From the IMG/VR virus record IMGVR_UViG_3300047462_000030: DNA of 24,378 nucleotides. The stretch is one strand, 5' to 3'. The position numbers were made by a program, and so were the translations under genes. The DNA is from an uncultured virus (IMG/VR IMGVR_UViG_3300047462_000030) (lineage: Duplodnaviria > Heunggongvirae > Uroviricota > Caudoviricetes). This document shows, one piece after another, positions 1 to 18,711 of this stretch. Position 1 is the first letter of the stretch, and each line of letters opens with the position of its first letter. The notes beneath the pieces were generated by a model that ran no database searches, was not told the DNA's origin, and saw nothing but the letters and a program-made list of their open reading frames with translations.

Positions 1-154
1 GAAAGCCATCATGGTTAGGCATAGGTGTTAGAGTTCTCCTAAGTTCTACAGTTTCTCTATCATGCTTCCATATATCGTAGAAGGAATAGAATAAGAATAA
101 CAATAAGATTAGTATTGATACTCCTAATATAATTATAAGTATATGATGTATCAT
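1..154 (-). CDS. Small membrane protein, 3'-truncated by the window edge
   Basis: ATG at 154 overlaps the upstream stop. Translation MIHHILIIILGVSILILLLFLFYSFYDIWK... has an N-terminal hydrophobic helix and stays open to the edge. Confidence 0.5.
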   Translation of the reverse strand, partial: MIHHILIIILGVSILILLLFLFYSFYDIWKHDRETVELRRTLTPMPNHDGF

Positions 155-396
155 TAGAAGCCTCTAAACTTTTTAATAAACCTCATGTTAGCTTCACGAC
201 GTTTTAAGAATAAGCATTCAACATTGTCTGGTTTATATTCAACTTCAAACTCTGTATCTTTAAGTAAGAACATTGCATCCATTTGTTCAGTCTCAAAGTC
301 AACACCATACAAGATACCATCCTCTATAGCATAAAGGGTAAACCTTTGACCTGATACTGTAATAACATCACCCGGTTTAAGATTACATATTTCCAT
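154..396 (-). CDS. Hypothetical protein, SH3/KOW-like N-terminus
   Basis: 80 aa; starts LKPGDVITV; packed in the minus-strand gene train. Confidence 0.65.
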   Translation of the reverse strand: MEICNLKPGDVITVSGQRFTLYAIEDGILYGVDFETEQMDAMFLLKDTEFEVEYKPDNVECLFLKRREANMRFIKKFRGF

Positions 397-724
397 ACTT
401 GCTATCCTTTGTTATGATGCCACCATTGGCAGACCTGATATACATTGTAAATGTCTTGTAACCCATATCAGCAAATGCCTCTTGCATTTGACTCATGATA
501 TAAGATGCTAGATCAAAGCTCGTAGTCTTAATGATAACGTGTGGAGCTTGCACATGATTCTTTGTCTCAAGCAATAACTCCCACTCACCACCAACAATCT
601 TAGATAACATATCATCCTTACCTTTCATTGGTTCATCAAGACCTAATTGATCTACAGTAAATAACATCTTATCTTTATACCATAGATATGCAATACACAA
701 AGCACTTACTACAATCATCCACAT
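383..724 (-). CDS. Hypothetical protein with N-terminal membrane anchor
   Basis: Start moved to ATG 724 (MWMIVVSALCIAYLWY), which follows an AAGGA RBS; 113 aa. Confidence 0.65.
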   Translation of the reverse strand: MWMIVVSALCIAYLWYKDKMLFTVDQLGLDEPMKGKDDMLSKIVGGEWELLLETKNHVQAPHVIIKTTSFDLASYIMSQMQEAFADMGYKTFTMYIRSANGGIITKDSKYGNM

Positions 725-734
725 AATATATTCC

Positions 735-977
735 TTAACCTTCTGGATAAATATCATATTGAGTATCATCGTTAAAGTAATTGGTGACAACTCTACTGTC
801 TATAAATTCATTACCGAATCTTTCACGAAGTAACTTAAGACCTACATTAGATACAAAATAATCTATTCCATTTAGATATAGTATATCACCATCTGAAGGT
901 TCACACTCGTGCATAGTGATAGGACATAAACCTAATTGAGCTTCAAGTGTTTGCATCTTGTATGCTGTCATATCCAT
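735..977 (-). CDS. Hypothetical protein
   Basis: Probable start MDMTAYK at 977; exact start uncertain. Confidence 0.6.
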   Translation of the reverse strand: MDMTAYKMQTLEAQLGLCPITMHECEPSDGDILYLNGIDYFVSNVGLKLLRERFGNEFIDSRVVTNYFNDDTQYDIYPEG

Positions 978-997
978 TTCTTTATTACGTCTAGGTA

Positions 998-1459
998 CTA
1001 CCATCTGCTATCTCCATTGTTGGTGTAAGCCATCTCAGCTTCATCCAGTAATCTTTCACGTTCATCTAATAAACAATCAGGACATCTATGCTCATCATAA
1101 TGAGTAGAACAATCTTGACATTCAAATCTATCTGATCCATAAACATCTGGTATCATATAGTTACCATACTTATCTATACGCATACCAACATACAATGGTA
1201 TGTATCCACACCACCACTTACGTTTAATAAACTTAACTTTAAGTGGAGTATGTTTACGATAAAAGTTAACGCTACTAGCTGACTTAGAATAGAATGTATA
1301 TTCATTTAATGAATTGATAGTTAATATAGTATTACGACCAAGAAAAATATAAGCAGCATCATTCATTATAATTATACGATAAGAATAATACTTAGCCCCA
1401 TCCCATCTATTAGTAGATTTTTTAAATAGGTCATTAGCTTTCTTGAATGTTATCGCCAT
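998..1459 (-). CDS. Hypothetical protein with C-terminal Zn-ribbon
   Basis: 153 aa; CQDC...CPDC motif; GGAG RBS. Confidence 0.7.
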   Translation of the reverse strand: MAITFKKANDLFKKSTNRWDGAKYYSYRIIIMNDAAYIFLGRNTILTINSLNEYTFYSKSASSVNFYRKHTPLKVKFIKRKWWCGYIPLYVGMRIDKYGNYMIPDVYGSDRFECQDCSTHYDEHRCPDCLLDERERLLDEAEMAYTNNGDSRW

Positions 1460-1616
1460 ATTCTAACTCCATATCTTGTTCAATGTAGATAGAAGGTTTA
1501 TGTCCAAACTCTATGAATGCTTCACTAGCTGCATACTCAGCTTCTTCTCTTGATGAGATACAGTTAGCATAAGTAATTGCTTTGCCACTAGAATGTTGTA
1601 CCGTTATTTTATACAT
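1434..1616 (-). CDS. Hypothetical protein
   Basis: 60 aa; AAGGAG RBS upstream of the ATG. Confidence 0.7.
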   Translation of the reverse strand: MYKITVQHSSGKAITYANCISSREEAEYAASEAFIEFGHKPSIYIEQDMELEYGDNIQES

Positions 1617-1625
1617 AGTATCTCC

Positions 1626-1985
1626 TTAATGTTTAAAGTTTTCTTGTACTCTATCAAGCCATTCAATATCATCTTTAGGACTTGAGTATTCAACTACTTC
1701 AAAGTTGTGTTTAAAAAGATATACCGTTTGCATATCACCTTCATTGTCTAATACTTCTACAGCATATACATTTTCTTCTGTGCGATTATCTTCTTCTGAC
1801 TCATCATTGTAATTATAATAGTCATCATCTTTATAATACTCATGGTCAATGTCGCCTGTCAACACACCAATCTTACCAAGATAATTTGAAACTGCATAGT
1901 CATAATCATCTGGATCTTCATTAATGTTAACTTTATATTTTAAGTTTTTGATATGAACCTTGCTACCTTGTCTTAACTTTTTCAT
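1626..1985 (-). CDS. Acidic SH3/KOW-like protein ending in the shared WLDRVQENF tag
   Basis: LRQGSKVHI start; C-terminus DDIEWLDRVQENFKH. Confidence 0.75.
   Translation of the reverse strand: MKKLRQGSKVHIKNLKYKVNINEDPDDYDYAVSNYLGKIGVLTGDIDHEYYKDDDYYNYNDESEEDNRTEENVYAVEVLDNEGDMQTVYLFKHNFEVVEYSSPKDDIEWLDRVQENFKH
1633..1666. repeat. 34-bp exact direct repeat, copy 1 (encodes EWLDRVQENFK)
   Basis: ttaaagttttcttgtactctatcaagccattcaa, identical to 2460-2493. Confidence 0.95.
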
Positions 1986-2185
1986 TTGACTTTATCCTCA
2001 AATGTAATTGCTACTTCTAATACTTCAGCATTTTTACCAAACTGTGTAGCAACATAGTTATCTAGATTCTTTACAATGAAACTAGCGGCTTGATCTAAGA
2101 TATGAAAGCCTGAGAAAGCCATACCCATACCAAAGACTGTATGCCATTTGTCTTGACCTTCTAACTTAAGCTTTAACTTCCACAT
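1982..2185 (-). CDS. Hypothetical protein
   Basis: 67 aa; ATGA overlap with the next gene. Confidence 0.7.
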   Translation of the reverse strand: MWKLKLKLEGQDKWHTVFGMGMAFSGFHILDQAASFIVKNLDNYVATQFGKNAEVLEVAITFEDKVK

Positions 2186-2450
2186 TTTTATTCTCCATTT
2201 CTCTTACAATTGCTTTACCAATCATGAAAGCATATAAATATGCTTTAGCTATTGTATACCATTGCTTGTACTCAAAGTTATCTGGTGCACCGGCATCTGC
2301 TAATCCCATGTTGATTGCAAAGTATAACTCATCAGGGCCAAACTTTCTATCCATAGTTTGACCTTTGTGTTCTTCCATGATTGCTTTAAGTGTATCAAGT
2401 AGTTCTTTTTTAACACCTACTTGTTCTGCTAAGTCAAATACTTGAGACAT
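2166..2450 (-). CDS. Hypothetical protein
   Basis: 94 aa; AGGAG RBS. Confidence 0.75.
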   Translation of the reverse strand: MSQVFDLAEQVGVKKELLDTLKAIMEEHKGQTMDRKFGPDELYFAINMGLADAGAPDNFEYKQWYTIAKAYLYAFMIGKAIVREMENKNVEVKA

Positions 2451-2452
2451 AT

Positions 2453-2689
2453 TTACTCCTTAAAGTTTTCTTGTACTCTATCAAGCCATTCAACATCTGA
2501 TTCAATTTGTTTACGAGCTAAAGCTAATTCAAAATATTGAACATCATAATTGCCATTATTTTCTTTTATATACAATGCAGTTCCTTGTTTATTGTATGCA
2601 TCAAATGTATATATACCACCTACTTTACATATACCATATACATTTATTATGCGTCTAATCTTATCACCTTTTTTAAACTTAGGATGCAT
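2453..2689 (-). CDS. SH3/KOW-like protein ending in the shared WLDRVQENF tag
   Basis: Probable start MHPKFKKGDKIRR; C-terminus SDVEWLDRVQENFKE. Confidence 0.75.
   Translation of the reverse strand: MHPKFKKGDKIRRIINVYGICKVGGIYTFDAYNKQGTALYIKENNGNYDVQYFELALARKQIESDVEWLDRVQENFKE
2460..2493. repeat. 34-bp exact direct repeat, copy 2
   Basis: Identical to 1633-1666. Confidence 0.95.
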
Positions 2690-2897
2690 AGTTAACTTCC
2701 AATGATTGAGTATTGTCATCACTTGTATCTACAAATTGAACATCTCTAACTACATGTGTATGCATTAAGATTATCTCAATAATATCTAATACATTCTTAT
2801 CACTTGATAACACTACCACACGACCGTCTTGATATATCATGTGTGCTTCAAACTTAGACCTTAAAAGTATTTTGTCTAACATATAAAAACCCCTCAC
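2679..2897 (-). CDS. Hypothetical protein
   Basis: ORF in the gene train; the start may instead be MLDKILL at 2882. Confidence 0.6.
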   Translation of the reverse strand: MRGFYMLDKILLRSKFEAHMIYQDGRVVVLSSDKNVLDIIEIILMHTHVVRDVQFVDTSDDNTQSLEVNYAS

Positions 2898-2994
2898 AAC
2901 GTACAGACGTTAAAAATAACGCGGACTATAATTCACTCATGCCACGTACAATACTATATAGTATAACCCAATGACAATCAATGATACAATCATG

Positions 2995-3156
2995 TTACAC
3001 CTTTACAATCTTAAAGGTTGTTACTGTGACACACTCACCTGGCTTCATGTGTGCAACTCTATCTGGTATCCATACACTAGCAAACATATTGTATAGCCAA
3101 TGTAAACTTATAGGATTGTCTGTTATCTTATGCTTACCATCATACACTAAGTACAT
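2995..3156 (-). CDS. Hypothetical protein (53 aa, absent from the ORF track)
   Basis: TAATG coupling with the upstream gene and GAGGAG RBS; MYLVYDGKHKITDNPISLHWLYNMF...KIVKV. Confidence 0.65.
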   Translation of the reverse strand: MYLVYDGKHKITDNPISLHWLYNMFASVWIPDRVAHMKPGECVTVTTFKIVKV

Positions 3157-3437
3157 TAAAAGTCCTCCTCTTGTTCAAAGAAGTTTAATTGTATCTTATC
3201 TAAATAACATACTTTACTTATTAATTCTATTTCTTTTTCATTCACTGTTAAATCGTTAAAGCCTAATGATGGCGGCATATCATCAAGCCTTACTGTATAA
3301 GAATACTTTATAGGTTGATCTAGAAATCTAGTCTTATGTTGTATATGAACAATGGTGCCTGTCTTACCTATTGTAAAATTATTTTCTTCATGATCTAGAT
3401 TTGCAATTACTTTAATCCTATCACCAACTTCAAACAT
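3156..3437 (-). CDS. SH3/KOW-like protein with a variant of the shared tag
   Basis: MFEVGDRIKV...IGKTGTIV...Y.VRLD...EIELI; C-terminus CYLDKIQLNFFEQEEDF. Confidence 0.75.
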   Translation of the reverse strand: MFEVGDRIKVIANLDHEENNFTIGKTGTIVHIQHKTRFLDQPIKYSYTVRLDDMPPSLGFNDLTVNEKEIELISKVCYLDKIQLNFFEQEEDF

Positions 3438-3440
3438 ACT

Positions 3441-3866
3441 TCAACCTTTCTTGTCGCACCAATCAGAATGTCTTGTCAAAGGTCCATGTACTTTCTCACT
3501 ACCACAAGTACATACATTAGCTTTAGGTTTTGTTATTTGATTGACATACTTATTATAGTATTCTTGTTGTTCTCGTTGCTCATTGCATAAGTCTTGTAAT
3601 CTTGTTTGAGTTGGAGAAACAATTACACGACCACTAGGTAATACTAGTTCTATCTCATCGGGCCACACTACACTTGTAACATTGTATTTAGCAAACTCTA
3701 CTTGATAAGTAAACCCTATTGCAGATACTATAACACCTTCACTATCAATAGGCAATGAAGGTTTATTATGGATAGGAGTTATTGTTTTAGTGGTACGAAC
3801 TTTATCACCCACTTTAAATACTTTTGGCATAGTTGTACCGCTGTATAACATATTAAGTTTATTCAT
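3441..3866 (-). CDS. SH3/KOW-like protein with a C-terminal Cys/His metal-binding motif
   Basis: FKVGDKVR...EIELV, then CTCG...HSDWC; AAGGAG RBS. Confidence 0.75.
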   Translation of the reverse strand: MNKLNMLYSGTTMPKVFKVGDKVRTTKTITPIHNKPSLPIDSEGVIVSAIGFTYQVEFAKYNVTSVVWPDEIELVLPSGRVIVSPTQTRLQDLCNEQREQQEYYNKYVNQITKPKANVCTCGSEKVHGPLTRHSDWCDKKG

Positions 3867-3876
3867 AACAATCTCC

Positions 3877-3905
3877 TTGACATTTGTATTAAAGTATGAT
3901 ATGCT
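3877..3905 (+). promoter_or_regulatory. Sigma70-type promoter, antisense to the leftward operon
   Basis: TTGACA (3877-3882), 17-nt spacer, TATGCT (3900-3905) with extended TG; intergenic. Confidence 0.5.
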
Positions 3906-3966
3906 AAAGCTATTGCTTTATCTTACAGCGTCGAGCGTAAGCAAAAGACGCGATGCATTACAAAGC

Positions 3967-4380
3967 TTAGTAGTCTGTAACACTACATCCTGTTACCGTG
4001 AAATTGCAAGATGAATTAATACCATTACTAGTATAATTCCCATTAGGAATAGCAGATAAGAAACCGTCATTGGCGGAGTAGACCGCATATAGATTACCTC
4101 CAATACAAAAGCCTATTTCACTGAAAGTATTAGGATATGATGTAGCATTAGAACAGAATTGTATTGGTTCAATAACTGTGCCAGCACTCCCATTAGATCC
4201 ATTAAGTAATAGAGATGATGTGCTACCACAAGTGATTAGTGAACCGCCATCAGGTGATGCACTTGATACACCTACACTAGATACAGTACAGCTTGTACCG
4301 TTTGTACCATCATGTCCATTAGTTCCATATTGTCCACAACCTGATAGTAATATTAACGCTATTATATACTTACGCATCAT
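3967..4380 (-). CDS. Lipoprotein with short collagen-like repeats and a Cys-rich C-terminal domain
   Basis: MMRKYIIALILLSG|C lipobox; GTNGHDGTNG and NGSNG G-X-Y triplets; six further Cys. Confidence 0.75.
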   Translation of the reverse strand: MMRKYIIALILLSGCGQYGTNGHDGTNGTSCTVSSVGVSSASPDGGSLITCGSTSSLLLNGSNGSAGTVIEPIQFCSNATSYPNTFSEIGFCIGGNLYAVYSANDGFLSAIPNGNYTSNGINSSCNFTVTGCSVTDY

Positions 4381-4481
4381 TTCACCATAGCTTTTATAAT
4401 TGTATCTGGAGATATGAATGCGTTGGATGCAATCCACACGCTAATGAATAAACTTAATGCAATAACAAATACAAGTTTCAT
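4377..4481 (-). CDS. Small membrane or secreted peptide (34 aa)
   Basis: MKLVFVIALSLFISVWIASNAF...; AAGGGA RBS; ATGA overlap with the lipoprotein gene. Confidence 0.45.
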   Translation of the reverse strand: MKLVFVIALSLFISVWIASNAFISPDTIIKAMVK

Positions 4482-4707
4482 ATTATATCCCTTCGATGTA
4501 AGTTAATGTTTCATCTACTAACTCATCTTGACTCATATCATCTATATACATGTTAACACACCTTTACCCATCCACAATTACACTTAGTACATATCCTATC
4601 AAAATACTCACTATCAATAGTATTCCTATCGACAAAGTAATTGGCATAGGCCTGTGAACCTTTATAAACATATCTATGGAATCCTAAAAAGCATTTCCAA
4701 TTCATAT

Positions 4708-4938
4708 TCAATCCCATGCAATTTCAATATACCTTGACTCATCATCTATGGTAACAACATAACACTTACCCTCAACCATAGCTTTGATAATCTTACCCTG
4801 AATACGTGTGCTATACTTAGACTCTATATAACTCCACTCACATCCAAAGTAACCATCCTCATAGCCTATAGTGAAATTCTTATAAGTATGTGAACCATCA
4901 TCAAACATTGCATTATCTAATACATTACACGCGCCCAT
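4708..4938 (-). CDS. Hypothetical protein
   Basis: 76 aa; GGAGGA RBS. Confidence 0.7.
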   Translation of the reverse strand: MGACNVLDNAMFDDGSHTYKNFTIGYEDGYFGCEWSYIESKYSTRIQGKIIKAMVEGKCYVVTIDDESRYIEIAWD

Positions 4939-5043
4939 AGAAAAGTCCTCCCCAATTCACACATACATAAAACACGCGCACTATTTTTCACACTGCATAC
5001 GATACACTTATGCCTTATACATTTGTGTATGTATATGAATTGA

Positions 5044-5229
5044 TTAGCAATCTCCAATCAACTCTAATCGTTCTAGTATTGCATTAGATATATGTTGTTC
5101 TATTTCTTTCTTATCCTCACGCAACACTCGGAGTAACTCTTGTTCTTCTGGAGTTAGTTCTCCACCTTGTTCTTGTATCTTATCTATAGCTTTACATACT
5201 TGATTCAACTTGTATTGACAGTTATGCAT
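5044..5229 (-). CDS. Hypothetical coiled-coil protein
   Basis: Start moved to MHNCQYK, which follows an AAGGAGG RBS; 61 aa. Confidence 0.7.
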   Translation of the reverse strand: MHNCQYKLNQVCKAIDKIQEQGGELTPEEQELLRVLREDKKEIEQHISNAILERLELIGDC

Positions 5230-5230
5230 A

Positions 5231-5407
5231 TCAACCTCCTTCATCCATACTTGTGATACCATCATCACACATCTCATCAGTACACTTGTGACAGTTATGC
5301 CATATACCTTCTGACTCTATATCGTCCTGAGCATCTTGTCTGGTATCATATGGAGCATCTATTAATATAGACTCTTTAACTTTACCTTTGATTATATTGT
5401 ATCTCAT
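5231..5407 (-). CDS. Hypothetical protein (58 aa, absent from the ORF track), directly downstream of hammerhead 2
   Basis: MRYNIIKGKVKESILIDAPY...CHKC...EGG; its RBS GAGGAGG lies inside the ribozyme core. Confidence 0.7.
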   Translation of the reverse strand: MRYNIIKGKVKESILIDAPYDTRQDAQDDIESEGIWHNCHKCTDEMCDDGITSMDEGG

Positions 5408-5487
5408 ATAATGGCCTCCTCAATACGTGCTATACACGTAGACATACCCATGAGCCTAGGGGAAGACCCATGGATATGTTTCGGCCT
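5407..5487 (-). ncRNA. Type II hammerhead ribozyme with variant core (UUGAGGA)
   Basis: Minus strand reads GGCC-GAAA-stem III (CAUAUCCAUGGGUCU/AGGCUCAUGGGUAUG)-UC|-stem I (UACGUG UAUAG CACGUA)-UUGAGGA-GGCC. Predicted cut after GUC, between 5441 and 5440. Confidence 0.8.
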
Positions 5488-5500
5488 AACAGCGTGGGGA

Positions 5501-5830
5501 TTACGCTGCCTCAGTATCAAATGCTTTGATCTCAGGGATCACAATATCATCGGCAACAACAACCTTGCTTGTCTTATCAACAGCAAGGATTGCTTTGTGA
5601 GCTTCAATGAATGTAGCAATGTCTTTACTAGCATTCAATAACTTAGCCCATTGTTTACCATAGAGTGTGACAGGGAAACGACCTAAGCCATATACAGATA
5701 CAGCTCCCTTAGCTGATACCTTAAAGCTTAGGCTAGGCTCTTTACGTTTGGGATTCTTAAGTTCTGCATTCTCTTGCTGAAGTCTTAAGAGTTCTGCTTT
5801 CATTGCTAATAGTTCTTGTTCGAAGTTCAT
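5501..5830 (-). CDS. Conserved-type hypothetical protein (coiled coil plus KVSxKGAVSVYGLGRFPVTLY domain), possibly nucleic-acid binding
   Basis: Start moved to MNFEQELL, which follows an AAGGAG RBS. I recall the motif from a widespread small bacterial/phage family of unknown function; not searched. Confidence 0.75.
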   Translation of the reverse strand: MNFEQELLAMKAELLRLQQENAELKNPKRKEPSLSFKVSAKGAVSVYGLGRFPVTLYGKQWAKLLNASKDIATFIEAHKAILAVDKTSKVVVADDIVIPEIKAFDTEAA

Positions 5831-6002
5831 GTGTATCTCCTTTGTAACGTATGCTATAGCATACATGGTTAATAATCATCTTAATAACATATACATAACT
5901 GTATGTATATGATGTAACATATTAATAACATTAACATAACTCATAACACACCCATTGCTTTAAACAATAGAACAGATATAAAGTAACCACACACTAGGTA
6001 CA

Positions 6003-6200
6003 TCATGCTACACGTTTCATATGTGTAGGGTATAACATATGCTCTATATTCTTTATCTCACTATCTAGGTATTCGATGTAGCCAATGTTAATACCATTGA
6101 CTCCACGTTCTTCATAGTGCATAGCTATCTTATACTTGATAGCAGTTAGATGAGACTTAAGTTCTTCTTCTGTGATGCTAACTCTTTTATACTTAATCAT
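6003..6200 (-). CDS. Hypothetical protein
   Basis: 65 aa; AAGGGG RBS. Confidence 0.7.
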   Translation of the reverse strand: MIKYKRVSITEEELKSHLTAIKYKIAMHYEERGVNGINIGYIEYLDSEIKNIEHMLYPTHMKRVA

Positions 6201-6219
6201 ATCTATCCCCTTGTTAAGA

Positions 6220-6351
6220 TTAAAGATAAGCTATTGTATACTCAAGCTTGCATTGCATTAGAACATTGACAAGCTTAAGTACATCGCTAAAGTATTCATA
6301 CTGCTCATGCTTAATAACACTACCATTGATATAAGTTACTTGATACTTCAT
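6220..6351 (-). CDS. Hypothetical protein (43 aa), first gene after hammerhead 1
   Basis: ATG at 6351 follows AAAGGAG. The longer ORF-track version would run through the ribozyme. Confidence 0.65.
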   Translation of the reverse strand: MKYQVTYINGSVIKHEQYEYFSDVLKLVNVLMQCKLEYTIAYL

Positions 6352-6359
6352 AACGTTCT

Positions 6360-6464
6360 CCTTTGTTAGACTCATCAGTACGCGCTTCACACGTAGACAA
6401 TCCAATAGGTTAGCTGATGTTCAACCGGCTTGCTATAGGATTGTTTCGTCTTTTAAACAAAAGG
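6360..6464 (-). ncRNA. Type II hammerhead ribozyme, canonical core
   Basis: Minus strand reads AGAC-GAAA-stem III (CAAUCC...GGAUUG)-UC|-stem I (UACGUG UGAAG CGCGUA)-CUGAUGA-GUCU. All conserved core nucleotides are present. Predicted cut between 6396 and 6395. Confidence 0.92.
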
Positions 6465-6885
6465 CTTGCTAAGTCTATCAAGTGTCTAGCTCATGCACTT
6501 AGGTACTACAGCTCTAACATTTGTCTTGATACTTTCGTCAAGTCCCTATGACAGCTCACATTCTAGTTACAGTCTATCGACCGCTTCAACTAGGGCTGTA
6601 AAGTATAGGACCACATGGTAATTAAGCACATGCTACGAAGGATTTATCCTACCGCCTATGACCTTTGTCTCGGGCATGGGTTACTAGCCTCATGTTATAT
6701 CCCGCTACTAGCGTCCAGCAATCGGCACCTGTCGAGAAGGCTCCTATACTTTGAACATGGCTTACTTGTTACAGGACTTACGTTCTAAGGCTTGTCTTAA
6801 GTAAGTCGACGTGTTAGCCTTGAACTACCTGCCTTAATTCTAGCAAGGCTTGTTGGTGCCTTTCTAGTCTAAGTTGCCGTTCGAA
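6465..6885 (-). ncRNA. Candidate large structured non-coding RNA, family not recognised
   Basis: No ORF of 60 aa or more; visibly GC-richer than its flanks; many nested helices (6600-6610/6742-6752, 6563-6568/6588-6593, 6775-6781/6801-6807, 6507-6512/6595-6600, 6501-6505/6826-6830, 6465-6471/6841-6847). Lies between a sigma-54 box and hammerhead 1. Confidence 0.6.
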
Positions 6886-6895
6886 AGATTTTCAT

Positions 6896-6912
6896 TGCAG
6901 GGGCGGTGCCAA
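6896..6912 (-). promoter_or_regulatory. Sigma-54 (RpoN) -24/-12 promoter
   Basis: TTGGCACCGCCCCTGCA, exact GG-N10-GC spacing; predicted start near 6885. Confidence 0.7.
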
Positions 6913-6968
6913 CTTTAAATTGCTGAATCTTTTCGGGCACTTACGTTTGCTGATCGCTCGTTCTTCTT

Positions 6969-6986
6969 TTGTAAGTACTTGAAATC
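6969..6986. promoter_or_regulatory. IHF-like site; 18-bp repeat of 7072-7089
   Basis: ttgTAAgtacTTGAaatc versus ttgTAAgtatTTGAaatc (one mismatch); near match to YAANNNNTTGATW. Confidence 0.5.
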
Positions 6987-7048
6987 GTTAATGAATTTTC
7001 TGAAGCGCTTGAAACTATTGGGGAATTTCAAATTGAACGTGCGTTAAC

Positions 7049-7129
7049 TGTAAAAACTTTTGACGGAAATCTTGTAAGTATTTGAAATCATTCAGTGTCG
7101 AACTTTTTTACATGTATAAACTTTTGACA
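7049..7129. promoter_or_regulatory. Three TGT-N11-AC(A/G) dyad sites, candidate enhancer for a sigma-54 activator
   Basis: TGTaaaaacttttgACG 7049-7065, TGTcgaacttttttACA 7096-7112, TGTataaacttttgACA 7113-7129. Confidence 0.55.
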
Positions 7130-7222
7130 CTCGGAAAATTTCCTATAATGAATTGCTCTCCCTCATCTAGCAGGTCTAAGTGATTAGCAATCGTTTTGCT
7201 TATCTATCGTTGTGGATTACAA

Positions 7223-7331
7223 GCAACTCTCATGCCAAACATTTTTCTACCTATCGCAATTCTCATGCCGGCATTCTTTTTGCATGGTCTTGTATTGTGG
7301 TATAGTATTTGCTAATGCAAGAGTAGGGCCT
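7223..7331. promoter_or_regulatory. Cluster of five sigma-54-like GG-N10-GC boxes on both strands
   Basis: Minus: TTGGCATGAGAGTTGC 7238-7223, CGGCATGAGAATTGC 7270-7256, AGGCCCTACTCTTGCA 7331-7316. Plus: CGGCATTCTTTTTGCA 7269-7284, TGGTATAGTATTTGCT 7298-7313. Confidence 0.65.
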
Positions 7332-7359
7332 GGTAGGGGGGTAGGGTAGTCTTGGGGGG
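7326..7359 (+). other. Putative G-quadruplex-forming sequence
   Basis: GGG-cctggta-GGGGGG-ta-GGG-tagtctt-GGGGGG fits G3+N1-7 four times. Confidence 0.55.
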
Positions 7360-7443
7360 CAATTGCAGTTGACATAGCTCACTGGAATTCTTTAGGAATA
7401 TTGAATATAGAAACATTACAAATCCAGCTAAAATTAGGTCATT

Positions 7444-7454
7444 TTAACAACTAT
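7444..7454 (+). promoter_or_regulatory. Phage-specific motif TTAACAACTAT (putative late promoter)
   Basis: Same 11-mer at 8097, 11709, 22223 and 23315, each at a gene boundary. Confidence 0.65.
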
Positions 7455-7531
7455 TATAGAAACGTATAGATTTACTAGGTTTATCTTCATTTTGACCTAG
7501 TTTTGGTTTAAATACGAGAAAAATGAACAGC

Positions 7532-7544
7532 TAAGTTATTGATT
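7532..7544. promoter_or_regulatory. IHF consensus site
   Basis: TAAGTTATTGATT is an exact match to YAANNNNTTGATW. Confidence 0.55.
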
Positions 7545-7603
7545 GTACTATTTAGAATGCAATCGAGAACTTAGTAATAACAATATGCTATTATAGAAAT
7601 TAT

Positions 7604-8089
7604 ATGAAATACAATTATAGAAACAAGTTAGAACATCTATTACAACCTGGTATTTATGGTATATTAAACAATAGAAATAAATCTATTTACATAGGTTATG
7701 GGGTTAATATGCTACAATCTGTATCTAGACAACTAGATATGATACAATCTAAAACTCATAGTCATTTTCCTCATACCACTAAAGTTAGTTCATTACAAGT
7801 GTTTATTATAGAAACTTGTCCTAATGATCTAGAATGCCTCAAGCTTTGTCAAACTACTTGGGCTGATACCTACCTAGCTAAAGGATATAAAGTCCTTAAT
7901 ATAGCCCGTCTATTGCGTTATAAAGTAAAAATTAAAGTAGATCAAGATTACAACATCCTAGTGTGTCTAGTTAGCTCTAATAAGAAATACAAGGTCATTA
8001 ATACCTTTAAACATATGCAAGATGCTATAGCTTATTCCAAACTTCTAGAACAAGAAATAACACAAGTATATGGTAAAAGGGAACAATAG
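7604..8089 (+). CDS. GIY-YIG-fold protein, probably catalytically degenerate
   Basis: PGIYGILNNRNKSIYIGY motif; the catalytic Arg and Glu positions appear substituted. Confidence 0.75.
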   Translation: MKYNYRNKLEHLLQPGIYGILNNRNKSIYIGYGVNMLQSVSRQLDMIQSKTHSHFPHTTKVSSLQVFIIETCPNDLECLKLCQTTWADTYLAKGYKVLNIARLLRYKVKIKVDQDYNILVCLVSSNKKYKVINTFKHMQDAIAYSKLLEQEITQVYGKREQ

Positions 8090-12169: not shown

Positions 12170-12583
12170 ATGTCTGATTTGAATATTAAAGAAGCTAAAG
12201 AATATAAAAAACTTGAGACCTTCTCTAATGCGCAAACTAATACAATCATTGAGCTATCTCGTAAGTTAAAGACTGCTCAAGATGAGATCACACATCTTAA
12301 AAAGCTATTAGAAGGTTCTGTTCCTCTTATTCAATCTCAATCTGATAAGATTATATCTAATGCTGGTGATCAAGAATATATTTGTCGTACTGAAATCAAT
12401 AAGTTACGCGGTATATCTAATGAAAGAGAACTTACACTAGAAGAAACCAAGAAACTTGATATTTTTTCTAAAATATTAAAAGACTTAGCCACTTCACCAA
12501 AAGGTTTAGATCAACCTGCTAAAAAAGCAACTGATGAAGAACTACTTGCCGCAATTGAATCAGAATCGAATACTAAACAATGA
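12170..12583 (+). CDS. Putative terminase small subunit
   Basis: 137 aa, helical, ATGA-coupled directly upstream of the large terminase; called by position only. Confidence 0.5.
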   Translation: MSDLNIKEAKEYKKLETFSNAQTNTIIELSRKLKTAQDEITHLKKLLEGSVPLIQSQSDKIISNAGDQEYICRTEINKLRGISNERELTLEETKKLDIFSKILKDLATSPKGLDQPAKKATDEELLAAIESESNTKQ

Positions 12584-14025
12584 ATTTAACTAAGGCAGAA
12601 GCTATAGCAGAATTCTGGAATAGAGGTAACTTAAAATATAAGTGTCATCCTATTCAAAAGGAAATGTACAACATTTTCTATGAAGCTCCTAAGCATTCTA
12701 CCCTTGTATGGCTACTTGCTCGTCAATCTGGTAAAAGTTATCTTTTAGGTATTCTTGCATTAGAACAAGCATTTAGACATGCTAATTCCATTATTAAAAT
12801 GGTAACAGATACTAAGCTACATCTTAAGTCAATCTTTGAAAAAATCTTTGAAGACCTTCTTGCAGATTGCCCAGAAAAGCTTAAACCAGATTTCAAAGAA
12901 AAAACATATACCTACTATTTCACTAATGGATCTCAAATCCAATTAGCCGGTACTGATAATAAGCACTATGAAAAACTTCGAGGACAAAAGGCTCATTTAG
13001 TTTTAATTGATGAAGCAGGTTTTTGTAACGATTTTTCTGATGTTGTTGATAGCGTTCTCTTTCCTACTACCACTCATACTGGTGGTAAGATCGTAATGGC
13101 CTCAACTCCTCCAGAACAATTAGACCATGATTTCTTTAAGTATATAGAAGTTGCTGAGAATGAAACATTTCTAACAAAGAAAACAATTCACGATAACCCG
13201 CTTCTTGATAAACCTCAAATTGAACAAATCATAAAGAAGATGGGTGGGATTAACTCAGAACGCTTTAGAAGAGAGTATCTTTGTGAAGTTGTTAAAGATC
13301 CTAATATGTCTGTTATTCCTGAGTTTGATGATGACCTTATCAAACAAATTGTAAAGGAATGGCCAACTCCTCCCCATTATGATTGTTATGAAGCTATGGA
13401 TCTTGGTGGAGTAGATTTAACTGTTTGCCTATTTGGTTATTATGATTTTAGAGCAGATAAGATTATAATTCAAGATGAACTTATTATGGACTTTTCTGAG
13501 CAAAATAATACAATAGCAAAGCTTACAGAAAATATTCAAAACAAAGAAAAAGAACTTTGGACAAGTCCTATGACGTTAGAAGTTAAGAAACCTTATCTTC
13601 GCGTTAGTGATATTGATTATATGGTAACTGGCGAAATTCTAAAATATAGCAATTACCAAATGAACTTTCAAGCTACAAAAAAAGATGATAACAATTCAGC
13701 TATCAATGACTTACGTCAGCTATTAGCTTCTAAAAAGATTATAATCCATCCTCGTTGTGTTAATTTAATAAGACATTTAAAAAACGTAAGATGGGCCAGT
13801 AAAACAAATAAACTTAAGTTCGCAAGAAGTCCAGATAACGGACATTACGATGCAGTGGACGCATTAAAGTATTTCGTTAGGTCTGTCATATTTACCAGGA
13901 ACCCATATCCTTCACATTATGATTTTAAGATGAAAGATCTATTTGTGGTTGATCCTGTTAGGTTTGAAAATAAACAAATTGATGTTTACCGTCAAATTTT
14001 TAATGTAAAAAGGAAAAGAACATAA
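12580..14025 (+). CDS. terL: Terminase large subunit
   Basis: Walker A ARQSGKS, LRG, Walker B LVLIDEAG, motif III ASTP, F.REY.CE, nuclease acidic motifs MDLG and HYDAVDALKY. Confidence 0.95.
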   Translation: MNLTKAEAIAEFWNRGNLKYKCHPIQKEMYNIFYEAPKHSTLVWLLARQSGKSYLLGILALEQAFRHANSIIKMVTDTKLHLKSIFEKIFEDLLADCPEKLKPDFKEKTYTYYFTNGSQIQLAGTDNKHYEKLRGQKAHLVLIDEAGFCNDFSDVVDSVLFPTTTHTGGKIVMASTPPEQLDHDFFKYIEVAENETFLTKKTIHDNPLLDKPQIEQIIKKMGGINSERFRREYLCEVVKDPNMSVIPEFDDDLIKQIVKEWPTPPHYDCYEAMDLGGVDLTVCLFGYYDFRADKIIIQDELIMDFSEQNNTIAKLTENIQNKEKELWTSPMTLEVKKPYLRVSDIDYMVTGEILKYSNYQMNFQATKKDDNNSAINDLRQLLASKKIIIHPRCVNLIRHLKNVRWASKTNKLKFARSPDNGHYDAVDALKYFVRSVIFTRNPYPSHYDFKMKDLFVVDPVRFENKQIDVYRQIFNVKRKRT

Positions 14026-16157
14026 TGGATTATATCAACGGTGGTGGTAATGACATTTATTTCGCAGCTAGAGAGCCAGAAAAGCTTGCTAGCGACGCTT
14101 TAAATAAAGCCCAAAGCTTCTTTAATCTATTACGAGCCAACTCCTACTTAGAAAAACTTCAACGTATGTGGAGAGCTTATCATGGAGCTTATGAGAATGA
14201 CTTAGGATTTGGTCATAGAGTAAATTTTTCTGGTGAACAAGGCGAATTAGTACAACTTCCTGTCAATCACTTTAGAAACCTTGCCCGACATATCTTGGTT
14301 ATGATTACTTCTAACCGTCCTATAATGGATGCTAGAGCTATCAATACCGATTATAAATCACTTGCTCAAGCTAACCTTGCTAACGGTATTTTAGATTATT
14401 ATATGCGAGAAAAAGGACTAGAAGACGTTCTAACTCGCGCTGTTGAATATGCAATTGTCCTTGGATCAGGTTTTATTAAACTTGCCTGGAACTCAATGGG
14501 TGGTAATCTCTATGATGCTGACCCAGAAACTGGTGAATTTACTTACGAAGGTGAGCTAGAATTCACAAATCTTTCTCCATTTGACGTTGTAGTTGATGGA
14601 ACAAAAGAAACTTGGGATAATGATTGGATTTTGACAAGAACATTTCAAAATAGATTCAATCTTATGGCTAAATATCCCGAATTAGCCGATAAAATCAAAG
14701 GAATTCCTCCTAAAAATCAATCTGCTGTATATCGTTTAGCTGTTTGGTCTAATGATGACACTGATGATATCCCTGTTTATGAATTTTACCATAAACAAAC
14801 TGAAGCACTTCCTGAAGGTCGATACCTTTTATTTCTAGATGCTGATATTATTCTATTAGATGCCAAGATGCCTTATAGAATGATCCCAATTTTCCGCATT
14901 GTTGCTGGTGAAATCCTTGGAACTCCTTATGGTTACTCGGATATGTTTGATATTTTTCCGATTCAAGAGTCAATTAACTCTCTTTATAGTACAATTATGA
15001 CCAACCAAAACGCATTTGGTGTTCAAAACTTGTATGTTCCTCGTGGTGCTGACATTGCTGTTAATCAACTTGAAGGTGCAATGAACATTATTGAGGGTAA
15101 TATGAAGCCAGAACCTCTCAATTTGACTCAAACACCTGCAGAAGTATTCAAATTTTTAGAAATGTTGGTGCAAGCATCAGAAACTTTATCTGGTGTTAAC
15201 TCAGTTGCTCGTGGTAATCCTGAAGCTTCTCTTAAATCTGGTACAGCTTTGGCCCTTGTTCAATCAATGGCTTTACAGTTTATCTCAGGTTTACAACAAT
15301 CTTACGTTAAACTTATTGAATCTATTGGAACTGCCATTATTGGTATTCTAAAAGACTTCTCAATGACTCCTAAGCTTATTACATTGGTTGGTAAAAACAA
15401 TAAACCATTGTTAAAAGAATTTACTGGAGACCAAGTATCTGAAATTAATAGAGTTGTTGTAGATATGGGTAATGCTTTATCAAGAACAATTGCTGGTCGT
15501 GTTCAAATGGCCGAACAATTGCTTCAAATGAAGCTACTTACAAACCCTCAACAATATTTCCAAGTGCTAAATACTGGTCGATTAGATTCAATGTATGAAG
15601 CCGAAATGGATGATCTACTTCTTATTAAACGAGAAAATGAAAAACTCTCTGAAGGTGTTAATCCTCCTGTATCTCCTCTAGATAAACACAGTATGCACAT
15701 TCAAGAGCACAGAGCAGTTCTTGATGATCCTGATTTGAGAAGTAATGATCAACTCAAAACTGTTGTAATGGCTCATATTCAAAGTCATTTAGATGATCTT
15801 CGACGTGTTGACCCAGCTCTTTTAAATTTAATTGGGGAAACTCCTCTTCCTCCTGCTAATCCTGCTCCACAAGGAAGCCCTCCCGGTGGAACTCCTCCTA
15901 ATCCTCCTGGACCCCCTGGTGGACCTCCTAGACCTGGTATGCCAGCTCCTGGACAAGGACAATCAGGTGCCGCTGGTGCAGAAGCTCAAGGCAACATGTT
16001 ACAAAATCCCCAACTAGGACCTATCAATCCTGGTGAAACATTATCAAATGGTGCTAGCCCAATGGCTATGCCAAATATTCCTAAGCCGCCTGGTGTTTTC
16101 AAAAATCTTCCAGTAATGGCAAATCAAATGGCTCCGCCTATTGCGGGAAGGAAATAA
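14025..16157 (+). CDS. Portal protein
   Basis: 710 aa directly after terL; GSGFIK, SPFDVVVD, SGV....G....SGTA portal-like motifs; Pro/Gly-rich C-terminal tail. Confidence 0.85.
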   Translation: MDYINGGGNDIYFAAREPEKLASDALNKAQSFFNLLRANSYLEKLQRMWRAYHGAYENDLGFGHRVNFSGEQGELVQLPVNHFRNLARHILVMITSNRPIMDARAINTDYKSLAQANLANGILDYYMREKGLEDVLTRAVEYAIVLGSGFIKLAWNSMGGNLYDADPETGEFTYEGELEFTNLSPFDVVVDGTKETWDNDWILTRTFQNRFNLMAKYPELADKIKGIPPKNQSAVYRLAVWSNDDTDDIPVYEFYHKQTEALPEGRYLLFLDADIILLDAKMPYRMIPIFRIVAGEILGTPYGYSDMFDIFPIQESINSLYSTIMTNQNAFGVQNLYVPRGADIAVNQLEGAMNIIEGNMKPEPLNLTQTPAEVFKFLEMLVQASETLSGVNSVARGNPEASLKSGTALALVQSMALQFISGLQQSYVKLIESIGTAIIGILKDFSMTPKLITLVGKNNKPLLKEFTGDQVSEINRVVVDMGNALSRTIAGRVQMAEQLLQMKLLTNPQQYFQVLNTGRLDSMYEAEMDDLLLIKRENEKLSEGVNPPVSPLDKHSMHIQEHRAVLDDPDLRSNDQLKTVVMAHIQSHLDDLRRVDPALLNLIGETPLPPANPAPQGSPPGGTPPNPPGPPGGPPRPGMPAPGQGQSGAAGAEAQGNMLQNPQLGPINPGETLSNGASPMAMPNIPKPPGVFKNLPVMANQMAPPIAGRK

Positions 16158-17316: not shown

Positions 17317-18711
17317 ATGGCAGATTTTAACAGTAGCTTACCAGTAAGGACACAGAATAATGGTGATGTCGTCATTAACGTGGCCGATGGTACTACAGAA
17401 ACACAGTTACTCGCTATTAGCGCAGCGGGTGCAATTTCATTAACGTCGGGTGGCTCAGTAACAGGTGGAACTGCCGCGTCTGTATCGCAATTGGCTGGGG
17501 GACAATATAACACTGTTCTTCCAACTCTAACAAATGCTCAGCAAGCTTCATTACAACTTGATGCTGCTGGTCGATTGCTTGTAGATATTGGAGCTTCGTC
17601 AGGTTCTGTTTCTGTAACTCAGAGCACAAGCCCATGGGTAACTTCAGATTTAGCCGATGGATCTTCTACTGGCGGTACTGCTGGTACAAAATCCCTATTA
17701 TCTGGTGGTATTTACAATAGTACACTTCCAACTCTTACAACTGGTCAACAAGCTGGTCTTCAATTAGACGCTAGCGGTAGATTACTTGTAGATATTGGCG
17801 CATCTTCTGGATCTATTTCAGTAACTCAAGGAACTAGTCCATGGATTGTTCAAGATTCTGCTGATGGTTCTGTTGCTGCTGGTACTGCTGGTACAAAATC
17901 AATGCTTGGTGGTTTAGTATATAATACTACTGCTCCAACATTGACAAACGGTCAACAAGTTGCTTTACAAGGTGACGTTAACGGCAACTTACTTGTAGAT
18001 TTAAAAACTGCTCTTCCTGCTGGAACAAATAGTATTGGTAATATTGGAACAGTTACAACGGTTACTACTGTAAGTGCTGTTACTGCAATTACAAATGCTC
18101 TTCCTGCTGGTACAAACACTATTGGTACTGTAAACCAAGGTAACGCAGGTACCATTGCTCAAGGTTGGTACTCTAGAATCACTGACGGAACAAATATTGC
18201 GGCTGTTAAAGGTGTTTCGGCCACAGCAGGTGCTACTGACCCTTCTCTTGTTGTTGCTCTTTCACCCAATTCGCCTGTACCCGCTGGCACAAATGCTATC
18301 GGTAGCGTACTTGCTAACTTACAAGTTTCTGGTGCTGCTGTAACTGTTGCAAACCCTGTACCTGTTACAATTACTTCGGCTTCCTCTGGAACTCCAATTC
18401 AATATTATTCAACTTCTGCTTCATTGGCTGCTGGTGCTTCTGCAACTCTTACTTACACAGTTCCTGCCACTCATACATTCAGTTTTGAACGTGCTTGGGC
18501 AAGTGCTTCTGGTAAGATTAAAGCTGTTGTAGCCAATAATGGTAGTACAATTTTTGTAGGGTTTAATAGCACTGCTAATCCCAACATTGATTTTACAATT
18601 ACTGCACCTCCATCGGTTGCTGCAGGAAACACAGTTACCATAACTATTACAAATGAAGATAAATCTGCATTTGACGTTTATGGAACAATTGAAGGAAACC
18701 AAATTAGTTAA
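17317..18711 (+). CDS. Repeat-containing fibre-like virion protein
   Basis: 464 aa, A/G/S/T-rich; three ~69-aa repeats (GG.YN...PTLT..QQ..LQ.D..G.LLVD) and three (L/V)PAGTN.IG repeats. Confidence 0.75.
   Translation: MADFNSSLPVRTQNNGDVVINVADGTTETQLLAISAAGAISLTSGGSVTGGTAASVSQLAGGQYNTVLPTLTNAQQASLQLDAAGRLLVDIGASSGSVSVTQSTSPWVTSDLADGSSTGGTAGTKSLLSGGIYNSTLPTLTTGQQAGLQLDASGRLLVDIGASSGSISVTQGTSPWIVQDSADGSVAAGTAGTKSMLGGLVYNTTAPTLTNGQQVALQGDVNGNLLVDLKTALPAGTNSIGNIGTVTTVTTVSAVTAITNALPAGTNTIGTVNQGNAGTIAQGWYSRITDGTNIAAVKGVSATAGATDPSLVVALSPNSPVPAGTNAIGSVLANLQVSGAAVTVANPVPVTITSASSGTPIQYYSTSASLAAGASATLTYTVPATHTFSFERAWASASGKIKAVVANNGSTIFVGFNSTANPNIDFTITAPPSVAAGNTVTITITNEDKSAFDVYGTIEGNQIS
17452..18000 (+). 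repeat. Three tandem ~207-nt coding repeats
   Basis: Evident in the translation; a fourth copy lies in the next gene at about 18840-18977. Confidence 0.85.

Follow-up and report, generated by a model that had tools for sequence, protein, structure and literature searches.

The stretch at positions 6465-6885 of the viral record IMGVR_UViG_3300047462_000030 raises the question of whether such a long segment devoid of any gene acts as RNA or as DNA and, if as RNA, from which strand and between which boundaries it is made. The window, i.e. the whole stretch of 24,378 nucleotides analysed here, is part of a novel tailed phage, and its large terminase (12580-14025) and portal protein (14025-16157) match PHROG families. 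An interpretation previously made from the letters alone (the sequence-only reading) saw in this stretch a structured RNA built from several nested domains, read from the minus strand and possibly representing a new large class of phage non-coding RNA. The results assembled in the present analysis point to the minus-strand leader of a leftward early operon, ended by a hammerhead ribozyme and only partly structured, a reading that is held tentatively, with a probability of about 0.45.

A non-coding stretch between divergent genes

Small genes occupy the minus strand throughout positions 1-6351, and plus-strand genes extend from 7604 onwards. The 1.2-kb gap left between these divergent leftward and rightward genes (6406-7603) contains no ORF of 60 aa or more and is the sole such stretch of at least 300 bases in the window. 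Within this gap, the segment 6465-6885 is non-coding, with stop codons densely distributed in all six frames, and GC-rich, its GC content of 0.447 comparing to 0.355 +/- 0.04 for 420-nt windows and falling in their top 2.3%. The remaining high-GC windows lie inside the portal gene and inside a large ORF (17317-18711) with no family match. The lack of a long ORF and the GC enrichment had both been correctly read from the letters. None of the 11 stop-to-stop pieces of the stretch reached the cut-off of a Pfam family, the best score being 14.7 bits for a cut-off of 27. The features discussed in the text are located in Table 1.

Table 1. Location of the features of the locus, and comparison with related strains (window coordinates).
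Feature	Positions	Strand	Basis or comparison
Main part of the putative leader RNA, GC-rich and ORF-free	6465-6885	-	no ORF, GC content, Rfam and Pfam negatives
Best leftward promoter candidate, extended -10	6837-6866 (TG-n-TAGAAT 6845-6837)	-	consensus match
11-bp perfect helix and enclosed domain	6600-6610 with 6742-6752	-	exact complement, mean P 0.76
Hairpin with two G-U pairs, formable only on minus	6568-6583	-	sequence; minus-strand MFE and centroid
Leader's last bases, upstream strand of extended HH1 stem II	6452-6464	-	pairing read by eye
Type II hammerhead HH1	6361-6451	-	RF02276 full-length match, core and stems verified
First leftward gene, 43 codons	6220-6351	-	ATG 6351, AAGGAG 6363-6358
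Diverged hammerhead-like element HH2	5413-5486	-	nhmmer self-match, stems verified
Strain-variable segment, right bound of conserved block	6914-7104		X9 and X6 contigs
RNA-library contig X17, 186 nt	6626-6811		peat metatranscriptome, 2 differences, depth 3.1
Strain X5	6242-6675		8 differences and 1 gap in 433
Strain X6	6528-6769		4 differences and 1 gap in 241
Strain X9	6524-6876		11 differences and 4 gap letters in 353 (3.1%)
Strain X9	5501-5749		20 differences in 249 (8%)
Strain X9	6003-6240		25 differences in 238
Strain X9	6291-6521		21 differences in 231
Strain X9, other non-coding part	7223-7401		12 differences and 23 gap letters in 179
Strain X9, rightward genes			2.6-4.7% differences

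The models of Rfam 15, which include GOLLD, ROOL, OLE, HEARO, raiA, RNase P, tmRNA, group I and group II introns, riboswitches and others, gave 0 matches for 6465-6885 at gathering score. Even at E<=10, the scan of 6200-7800 returned four matches of chance level, none of them located within 6465-6851; the stretch is reached, at its right end, only by a weak match to mir-722 (6852-6915, E 5.5). ARAGORN reported 0 tRNA or tmRNA genes. Together with the empty Rfam result at gathering score, this bears out the earlier statement that no signature of tRNA, tmRNA, RNase P or group I/II introns occurs in the stretch.

Short words are repeated along the stretch. The 8-mer quoted in the sequence-only reading indeed has two minus-strand copies in it, at 6545 and 6655, with a third occurrence at 13567. 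Another 8-mer is found in three minus-strand copies within 392 bases (6461-6468, 6787-6794 and 6845-6852) and is enriched, with 5 matches in the window for 0.9 expected, a number reached in 0 of 100 shuffles. One of the three copies falls in a predicted hairpin loop, and the 6-mer core of the word occurs a fourth time (6427-6432) in the stem III loop of the hammerhead motif HH1 described below. This thrice-repeated 8-mer could be a binding word, carried either by the RNA or by the DNA.

The remainder of the divergent gap possesses features of its own. Two pairs of 21-nt direct repeats start at 6969 and 7072, and at 7044 and 7108, respectively, and a 22-nt palindrome at 7094-7131 surrounds a TTGACA/TATAAT pair with a spacer of only 14 nt. 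The segment 6914-7131 probably serves the rightward operon as a variable block of promoter and operator sites. On the plus strand, four G-runs (3, 6, 3 and 6 G, with spacers of 7, 2 and 7) form a canonical G-quadruplex pattern at 7326-7359, in the untranslated region ahead of the first rightward gene, and many small deletions occur just upstream of it (7244-7295) in strain X9. Farther to the right, the AT-rich segment 7406-7625 (GC ~0.25) contains four copies of a 9-10-base word at 7406, 7453, 7590 and 7614, the fourth inside the start of ORF 7604-8089; these words look like iterons.

With respect to its folding, the stretch had been described as a nested architecture of several domains delineated by five helices. 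All five are exact Watson-Crick complements, but in the ensemble computed by partition function over 6352-6913 only the 11-bp helix is likely to form, with a mean pair probability of 0.76 on the minus strand and 0.62 on the plus strand. On both strands the other four remain at 0.20 or less, with at most 0.01 for the outer closing helix. A perfect helix of at least 11 bp arises in 4 of 150 dinucleotide shuffles, and the perfect helices of at least 7 bp number 8 in the stretch for 4.6 +/- 2.1 in the shuffles, 5.3% of the 150 reaching or exceeding 8. Strains X5, X6 and X9 all lack one base at position 6600, where the 11-bp helix has its foot.

The comparison of minimum free energies (MFE) with those of shuffled sequences is borderline. 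On the minus strand, z-scores amount to -1.89 for 6465-6885 (3 of 100 shuffles as good), -1.98 for 6396-6830 (3 of 100) and -1.80 for 6352-6913 (4 of 100), as compared to -0.65 for 6465-6885 (27 of 100) and -1.19 for 6352-6913 (15 of 100) on the plus strand. Sliding windows of 150 nt give values for the stretch that are no more extreme than those of its coding flanks. Since both the ensemble and the shuffle results are weak, the nested multi-domain model has to be considered as a possible drawing rather than a supported structure, and the stretch is predicted to fold beyond chance only weakly. The sequence does contain the two features previously noticed on the minus strand, a hairpin having two G-U pairs and a C-GAAA-G loop.

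Hammerhead motifs and the boundaries of the putative leader

Directly downstream of the stretch on the minus strand, and adjoining it, occurs the type II hammerhead motif HH1. Its match to the Hammerhead_II family (RF02276) reaches 24.4 bits for a gathering score of 37, with an E-value of 0.0032 that refers to a scan of 146 nt (6335-6480) and scales by arithmetic to ~0.5 for the whole window; HH1 is absent from the RF02276 results obtained with 1.6 kb (6200-7800) or with the entire window. The catalytic core is complete and consists of CUGAUGA (6378-6372), CGAAAC (6448-6443) and the GUC triplet (6398-6396). Stem I comprises 6 bp, one of them G-U, stem II comprises 4 bp, and stem III pairs 11 of its 12 positions, with one U-U mismatch and a loop of 24 nt. 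Loops close stems I and III, and stem II is open. Inside the full leader, the ensemble probabilities of stems I and III are 0.82 and 0.85, respectively. The cut site is predicted between C6396 and U6395. No pseudoknot between loop I and the tail of HH1 was found by eye.

The stem III loop of HH1 (6413-6435) additionally holds an exact 6-base complement of the catalytic box, and a second copy of the 9-base word that closes the leader at 6471-6463; both copies of this word could pair with 6851-6841. These elements may represent a built-in competing fold, or may be due to chance.

A search of the HH1 region against the window with nhmmer returned the segment 5402-5527 (E 7.6e-4), which contains a second, diverged hammerhead-like element (HH2) between the leftward genes 5501-5866 and 5231-5407. 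The 6-bp stem I of HH2 is that of HH1 with one wobble replaced by a Watson-Crick pair, both bases are changed in two of the four pairs of stem II, and a different helix, of 14 bp, makes up stem III; these apparently compensating changes, with the pairs listed by script, are judged from two paralogues only. A possible pairing of 5 bp, including one G-U, links loop I to the tail and extends to the start codon. The core of HH2 differs by a U instead of a C at position 3 and by a G at position 7. HH2 may be slow or inactive because U3 is opposite G8 and does not belong to a U3/A8 pair, which is the pair reported to covary (PMC3088659). As a result of U3 and G7, the purine run of the core doubles as the Shine-Dalgarno sequence of gene 5231-5407. 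No match of HH2 to Rfam was reported, and the 150-nt window 5400-5549 displays a minus-strand z of -4.1. A descriptor built for this analysis (core, GAAA and three stems) retrieved only HH1 and HH2 from both strands of the window and of 21 related loci. Each of the two elements directly precedes the Shine-Dalgarno sequence and the ATG of a minus-strand gene.

In this respect, the start of the first leftward gene probably needs to be revised. The ORF list places it at TTG 6405, from which the gene would run through the ribozyme; judging from the sequence, translation most likely begins at ATG 6351, which has an AAGGAG 6 bases upstream. The last bases of the leader (6464-6452) can pair with the segment 6367-6360, which contains part of this Shine-Dalgarno sequence; beyond a bulge of 4 nt, 8 pairs are possible, with a single U bulged out. 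This extension of stem II has a low ensemble probability. The predicted unpaired probability of the Shine-Dalgarno sequence of the first gene rises from 0.42-0.59 in the uncut RNA to 0.94 in the cut message, a gain in access that is not seen for HH2.

The choice of the minus strand in the sequence-only reading had leaned partly on a hammerhead and on a promoter. The hammerhead looks real and possesses a paralogue with apparently compensating stems. The promoter amounts to a consensus match. The best leftward candidate (6866-6837) agrees with 9 of 12 consensus positions and has the TG, with a weak -35 element, and would imply a start near 6830. The promoter scan is not enriched (8 sites found for 7.2 +/- 2.5 in shuffles), and neither is the extended -10 pattern in the window (16 occurrences for 10.6, with 6 of 100 shuffles reaching 16). 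If transcription starts near 6830, the two outer helices of the earlier model would fall partly outside the RNA. The hairpin 6833-6873 is a DNA palindrome that overlaps this best promoter match. Among the related strains, the X9 contig joins 6913 to 7105 and the X6 contig is unlike the window beyond 6913; the conserved block has its right edge at 6913 and, therefore, any promoter that the strains have in common should be located either left of 6913 or right of 7105. No terminator-like site was found between 6913 and the first leftward gene.

The minus strand is upheld as the meaningful one by HH1, its paralogue HH2, the G-U hairpin and the more negative minus-strand z-scores. Because HH1 needs a transcript arriving from the right, the stretch is understood as the leader of a leftward transcript. 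According to the mechanism proposed, transcription would start at a leftward promoter within the conserved block ending at 6913, the best candidate being 6845-6837. The transcript would then cross a GC-rich leader of at least 435 nt, with several local hairpins and the long-range 11-bp helix, before reaching the type II hammerhead at 6451-6361. The ribozyme would cut between C6396 and U6395, so that the leader would leave with a 2',3'-cyclic phosphate end and the message would carry a 5'-OH, followed by the hairpin of stem I. Through stem II and its extension, the last bases of the leader would be paired with the Shine-Dalgarno sequence of the first gene; cutting followed by strand separation should therefore expose the ribosome site. 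Effects on translation and on mRNA stability would be expected from such a cleavage.

A functional RNA read from the plus strand, such as an antisense transcript starting at 6266-6293 and opposing both the leader and the ribozyme, is very improbable. The best promoter-like site of the whole scan (10 of 12) does lie on the plus strand, at 6266-6293, and is directed towards the stretch, the 11-bp helix forms in this orientation too, and the RNA-library contig X17 is strandless. However, the plus-strand z-scores (-0.65 to -1.19) are poor, the G-U hairpin and both hammerheads fit the minus strand only, and neither a plus-strand gene nor a terminator comes next.

Another explanation, possible but doubtful, considers the stretch mainly as DNA, i.e. 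as a control region between divergent early operons that would harbour one or more promoters, operators and perhaps replication signals. The hairpins would then correspond to palindromic protein-binding sites or to chance, and the RNA to a passive spacer ahead of the ribozyme. The stretch does lie in a divergent gap of 1.2 kb, and the three copies of an 8-mer within 392 bases, the palindrome 6833-6873 across the best promoter match, the nearby segment 6969-7131 with its direct repeats and its 22-nt palindrome around promoter-like hexamers, and a folding not clearly better than that of shuffles would be readily accounted for. Less easily accommodated are the length of 420 bases, which is long for operators, and the GC enrichment, which is unusual for promoter or origin DNA, the more so as the AT-rich, repeat-bearing part of the gap lies elsewhere (7400-7625). 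Moreover, the downstream ribozyme needs a transcript that passes through the stretch, and an RNA-library contig falls inside it.

Related strains, RNA libraries and distant relatives

DNA nearly identical to that of the window occurs in runs labelled as moss and peat metagenomes. These 20 runs come from 18 studies; two are RNA libraries and two are possible sources of the window itself. In three strains, X5, X6 and X9, the contigs cover 28, 26 and 29, respectively, of the 30 bins into which a 3-kb stretch of the locus was divided. The segment 6465-6885 is kept in these strains with few indels. In X5 and X6 it is no better conserved than its flanks (1.7-1.8% differences vs 0.4-4.1%). In X9, the leftward genes diverge by 8-10.5%, to be compared with the lower values found for the stretch and for the rightward genes (Table 1). 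The stretch thus evolves no faster than its coding neighbours and keeps its length, unlike the non-coding part 7223-7401. The low divergence observed in X9 may reflect a recombination boundary rather than selection, because it begins near 6522 and runs into the rightward genes.

The sharp shift near 6522 in the divergence of X9, which resembles a mosaic joint, and a GC content unlike that of the flanks would both suit a decayed gene or a foreign, GC-richer insert deprived of any present function. Such an origin has nevertheless very little in its favour, taking into account that no Pfam family rose above its cut-off for any of the 11 pieces, that tblastx of 6400-7600 against 21 related loci gave no match, and that three strains have retained the stretch with few indels.

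The contig X17 was obtained from one of the RNA libraries and is the sole real contig of this kind on the 3-kb stretch, since the other piece of X17 consists of a 38-nt partial match with 5 differences. A random 186-nt piece placed on 3 kb would fall inside the stretch ~8% of the time, by arithmetic. The second RNA library, the peat metatranscriptome X19, has a similar share of shared words. The X17 contig gives a hint of abundance as RNA, to be read with the reservation that it is strandless, comes from one run and could result from DNA carry-over.

More distant relatives were sought in several ways. No match was found by blastn of 6400-7600 against 50,697 phage records, and three exact or degenerate DNA patterns searched in viral contigs, as well as one searched in genome contigs, were not found. 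Against the 21 related loci, blastn and nhmmer gave at best a chance-level E of 0.18. These loci include relatives identified by their terminase, namely 7 viral loci (best 59% identity, on a short contig) and 12 metagenome loci, whereas the same search of genome contigs gave no locus. The 121-aa neighbour protein led to the loci L008 and L009 (~52% identity), which have no gap at this place, and the RF02276 search of the L008 record gave 0 matches; the 161-aa and 117-aa neighbours led to no loci. Upstream DNA of at least 4.9 kb is available only in L013, L014, L019 and L021, and no similar stretch, GC-rich gap at the same place or hammerhead was found upstream in these four. The terminases of L013, L014 and L019 share 48-64% identity with that of the window. 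L014, a distant relative (48% terminase identity) represented by an 84-kb contig, contains a tRNA-like gene at 1716-1795 on the minus strand, with an Rfam tRNA score of 33.8 bits and a partial match to the tmRNA model.

With no relative beyond near-identical strains in the collections searched, there is no covariation to draw on and hence no class, and the proposal of a new large class of phage non-coding RNA is not sustained. To date the element is restricted to a single phage lineage, and the word "class" is unjustified.

In another explanation, the RNA set free by the ribozyme, about 435-520 nt long, would be a stable, folded non-coding RNA with its own function, acting in trans during infection, for instance as a decoy or sponge displaying the 8-mer; the ribozyme would give it a precise 3' end, and the freed RNA would titrate an RNA-binding factor of the host or of the phage. 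This explanation is rather unlikely. GC enrichment in an AT-rich phage, retention in the strains with fewer indels than in 7223-7401, the position of the only real RNA-library contig, and an enriched motif with one copy in a hairpin loop would all agree with it, as would the 3' end that a ribozyme would define. They are opposed by z-scores of only -1.8 to -2.0, by an ensemble that gives no support to four of the five helices proposed, by the failure to find homologues in the collections searched, which leaves no covariation to draw on, and by the lack of a similar stretch in L013, L014 and L019 at 48-64% terminase identity. The leader of a leftward operon, ended by a hammerhead, remains the preferred reading.

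Known hammerheads and large phage RNAs

According to Perreault et al. 2011 (PMC3088659), type II hammerheads are common in bacteria and prophages, where several of them often occur per operon and flank genes, and most members possess a pseudoknot between loop I and the tail that follows stem II. In the haloviruses HF1 and HF2, a hammerhead precedes the first early ORF by 13 nt, and the 5' end mapped there is located no more than three nucleotides from the cut site (PMC3088659). In Desulfovibrio vulgaris, PMC8782182 reports the in vivo cutting of three type II hammerheads, detected by cyPhyRNA-seq, and at least one of the three lies beside genes of bacteriophage origin. As far as these sources describe them, the type II hammerheads of phages and prophages resemble HH1 by their open stem II and their position immediately ahead of the gene that opens an early polycistronic message, by the occurrence of more than one element per operon, and by the start of the message expected at the cut site, with removal of the upstream piece.

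The locus departs from these cases in that the upstream piece would measure at least 435 nt, is GC-rich and is kept in the strains. HH1 itself differs from the RF02276 type by the 12 positions of its stem III, its 24-nt loop, a score below gathering and, as far as inspection by eye shows, the lack of a pseudoknot between loop I and the tail, and HH2 differs by U3 opposite G8 and by a core that doubles as a ribosome site. The arrangement as such, a hammerhead before early genes, is already known, and what is unusual is the putative leader, which is long, GC-rich and retained. No title or abstract in the literature searched reports a phage in which a hammerhead cuts off a long folded leader.

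By its length of several hundred bases, its non-coding character and its association with a phage, the stretch is reminiscent of GOLLD, ROOL, OLE and raiA, as presented in Weinberg et al. 2017 (PMC5737381). These families rest on a wide conservation with covariation, whereas the stretch is known from near-identical strains. Moreover, it matches none of their Rfam models at E<=10. GOLLD, ROOL, OLE and raiA are not known to end in a ribozyme. The RAGATH motifs of Weinberg et al. 2015 are said to be RNAs located near twister and hammerhead ribozymes. Like them, the present stretch is a candidate structured RNA spotted through an adjoining self-cleaving ribozyme in phage-like DNA, but it matches no RAGATH family of Rfam 15.

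As it stands, the locus is a lead and not a discovery. That hammerheads can precede the early genes of phages has been known since 2011, and the role of the upstream piece that is cut off has hardly been asked. If such leaders have a function of their own, the ribozyme would serve to mature a non-coding RNA, beyond its use as a processing site of the mRNA. The core of HH2, which is also a ribosome-binding site, would offer a natural experiment on how a ribozyme and translation signals share the same bases.
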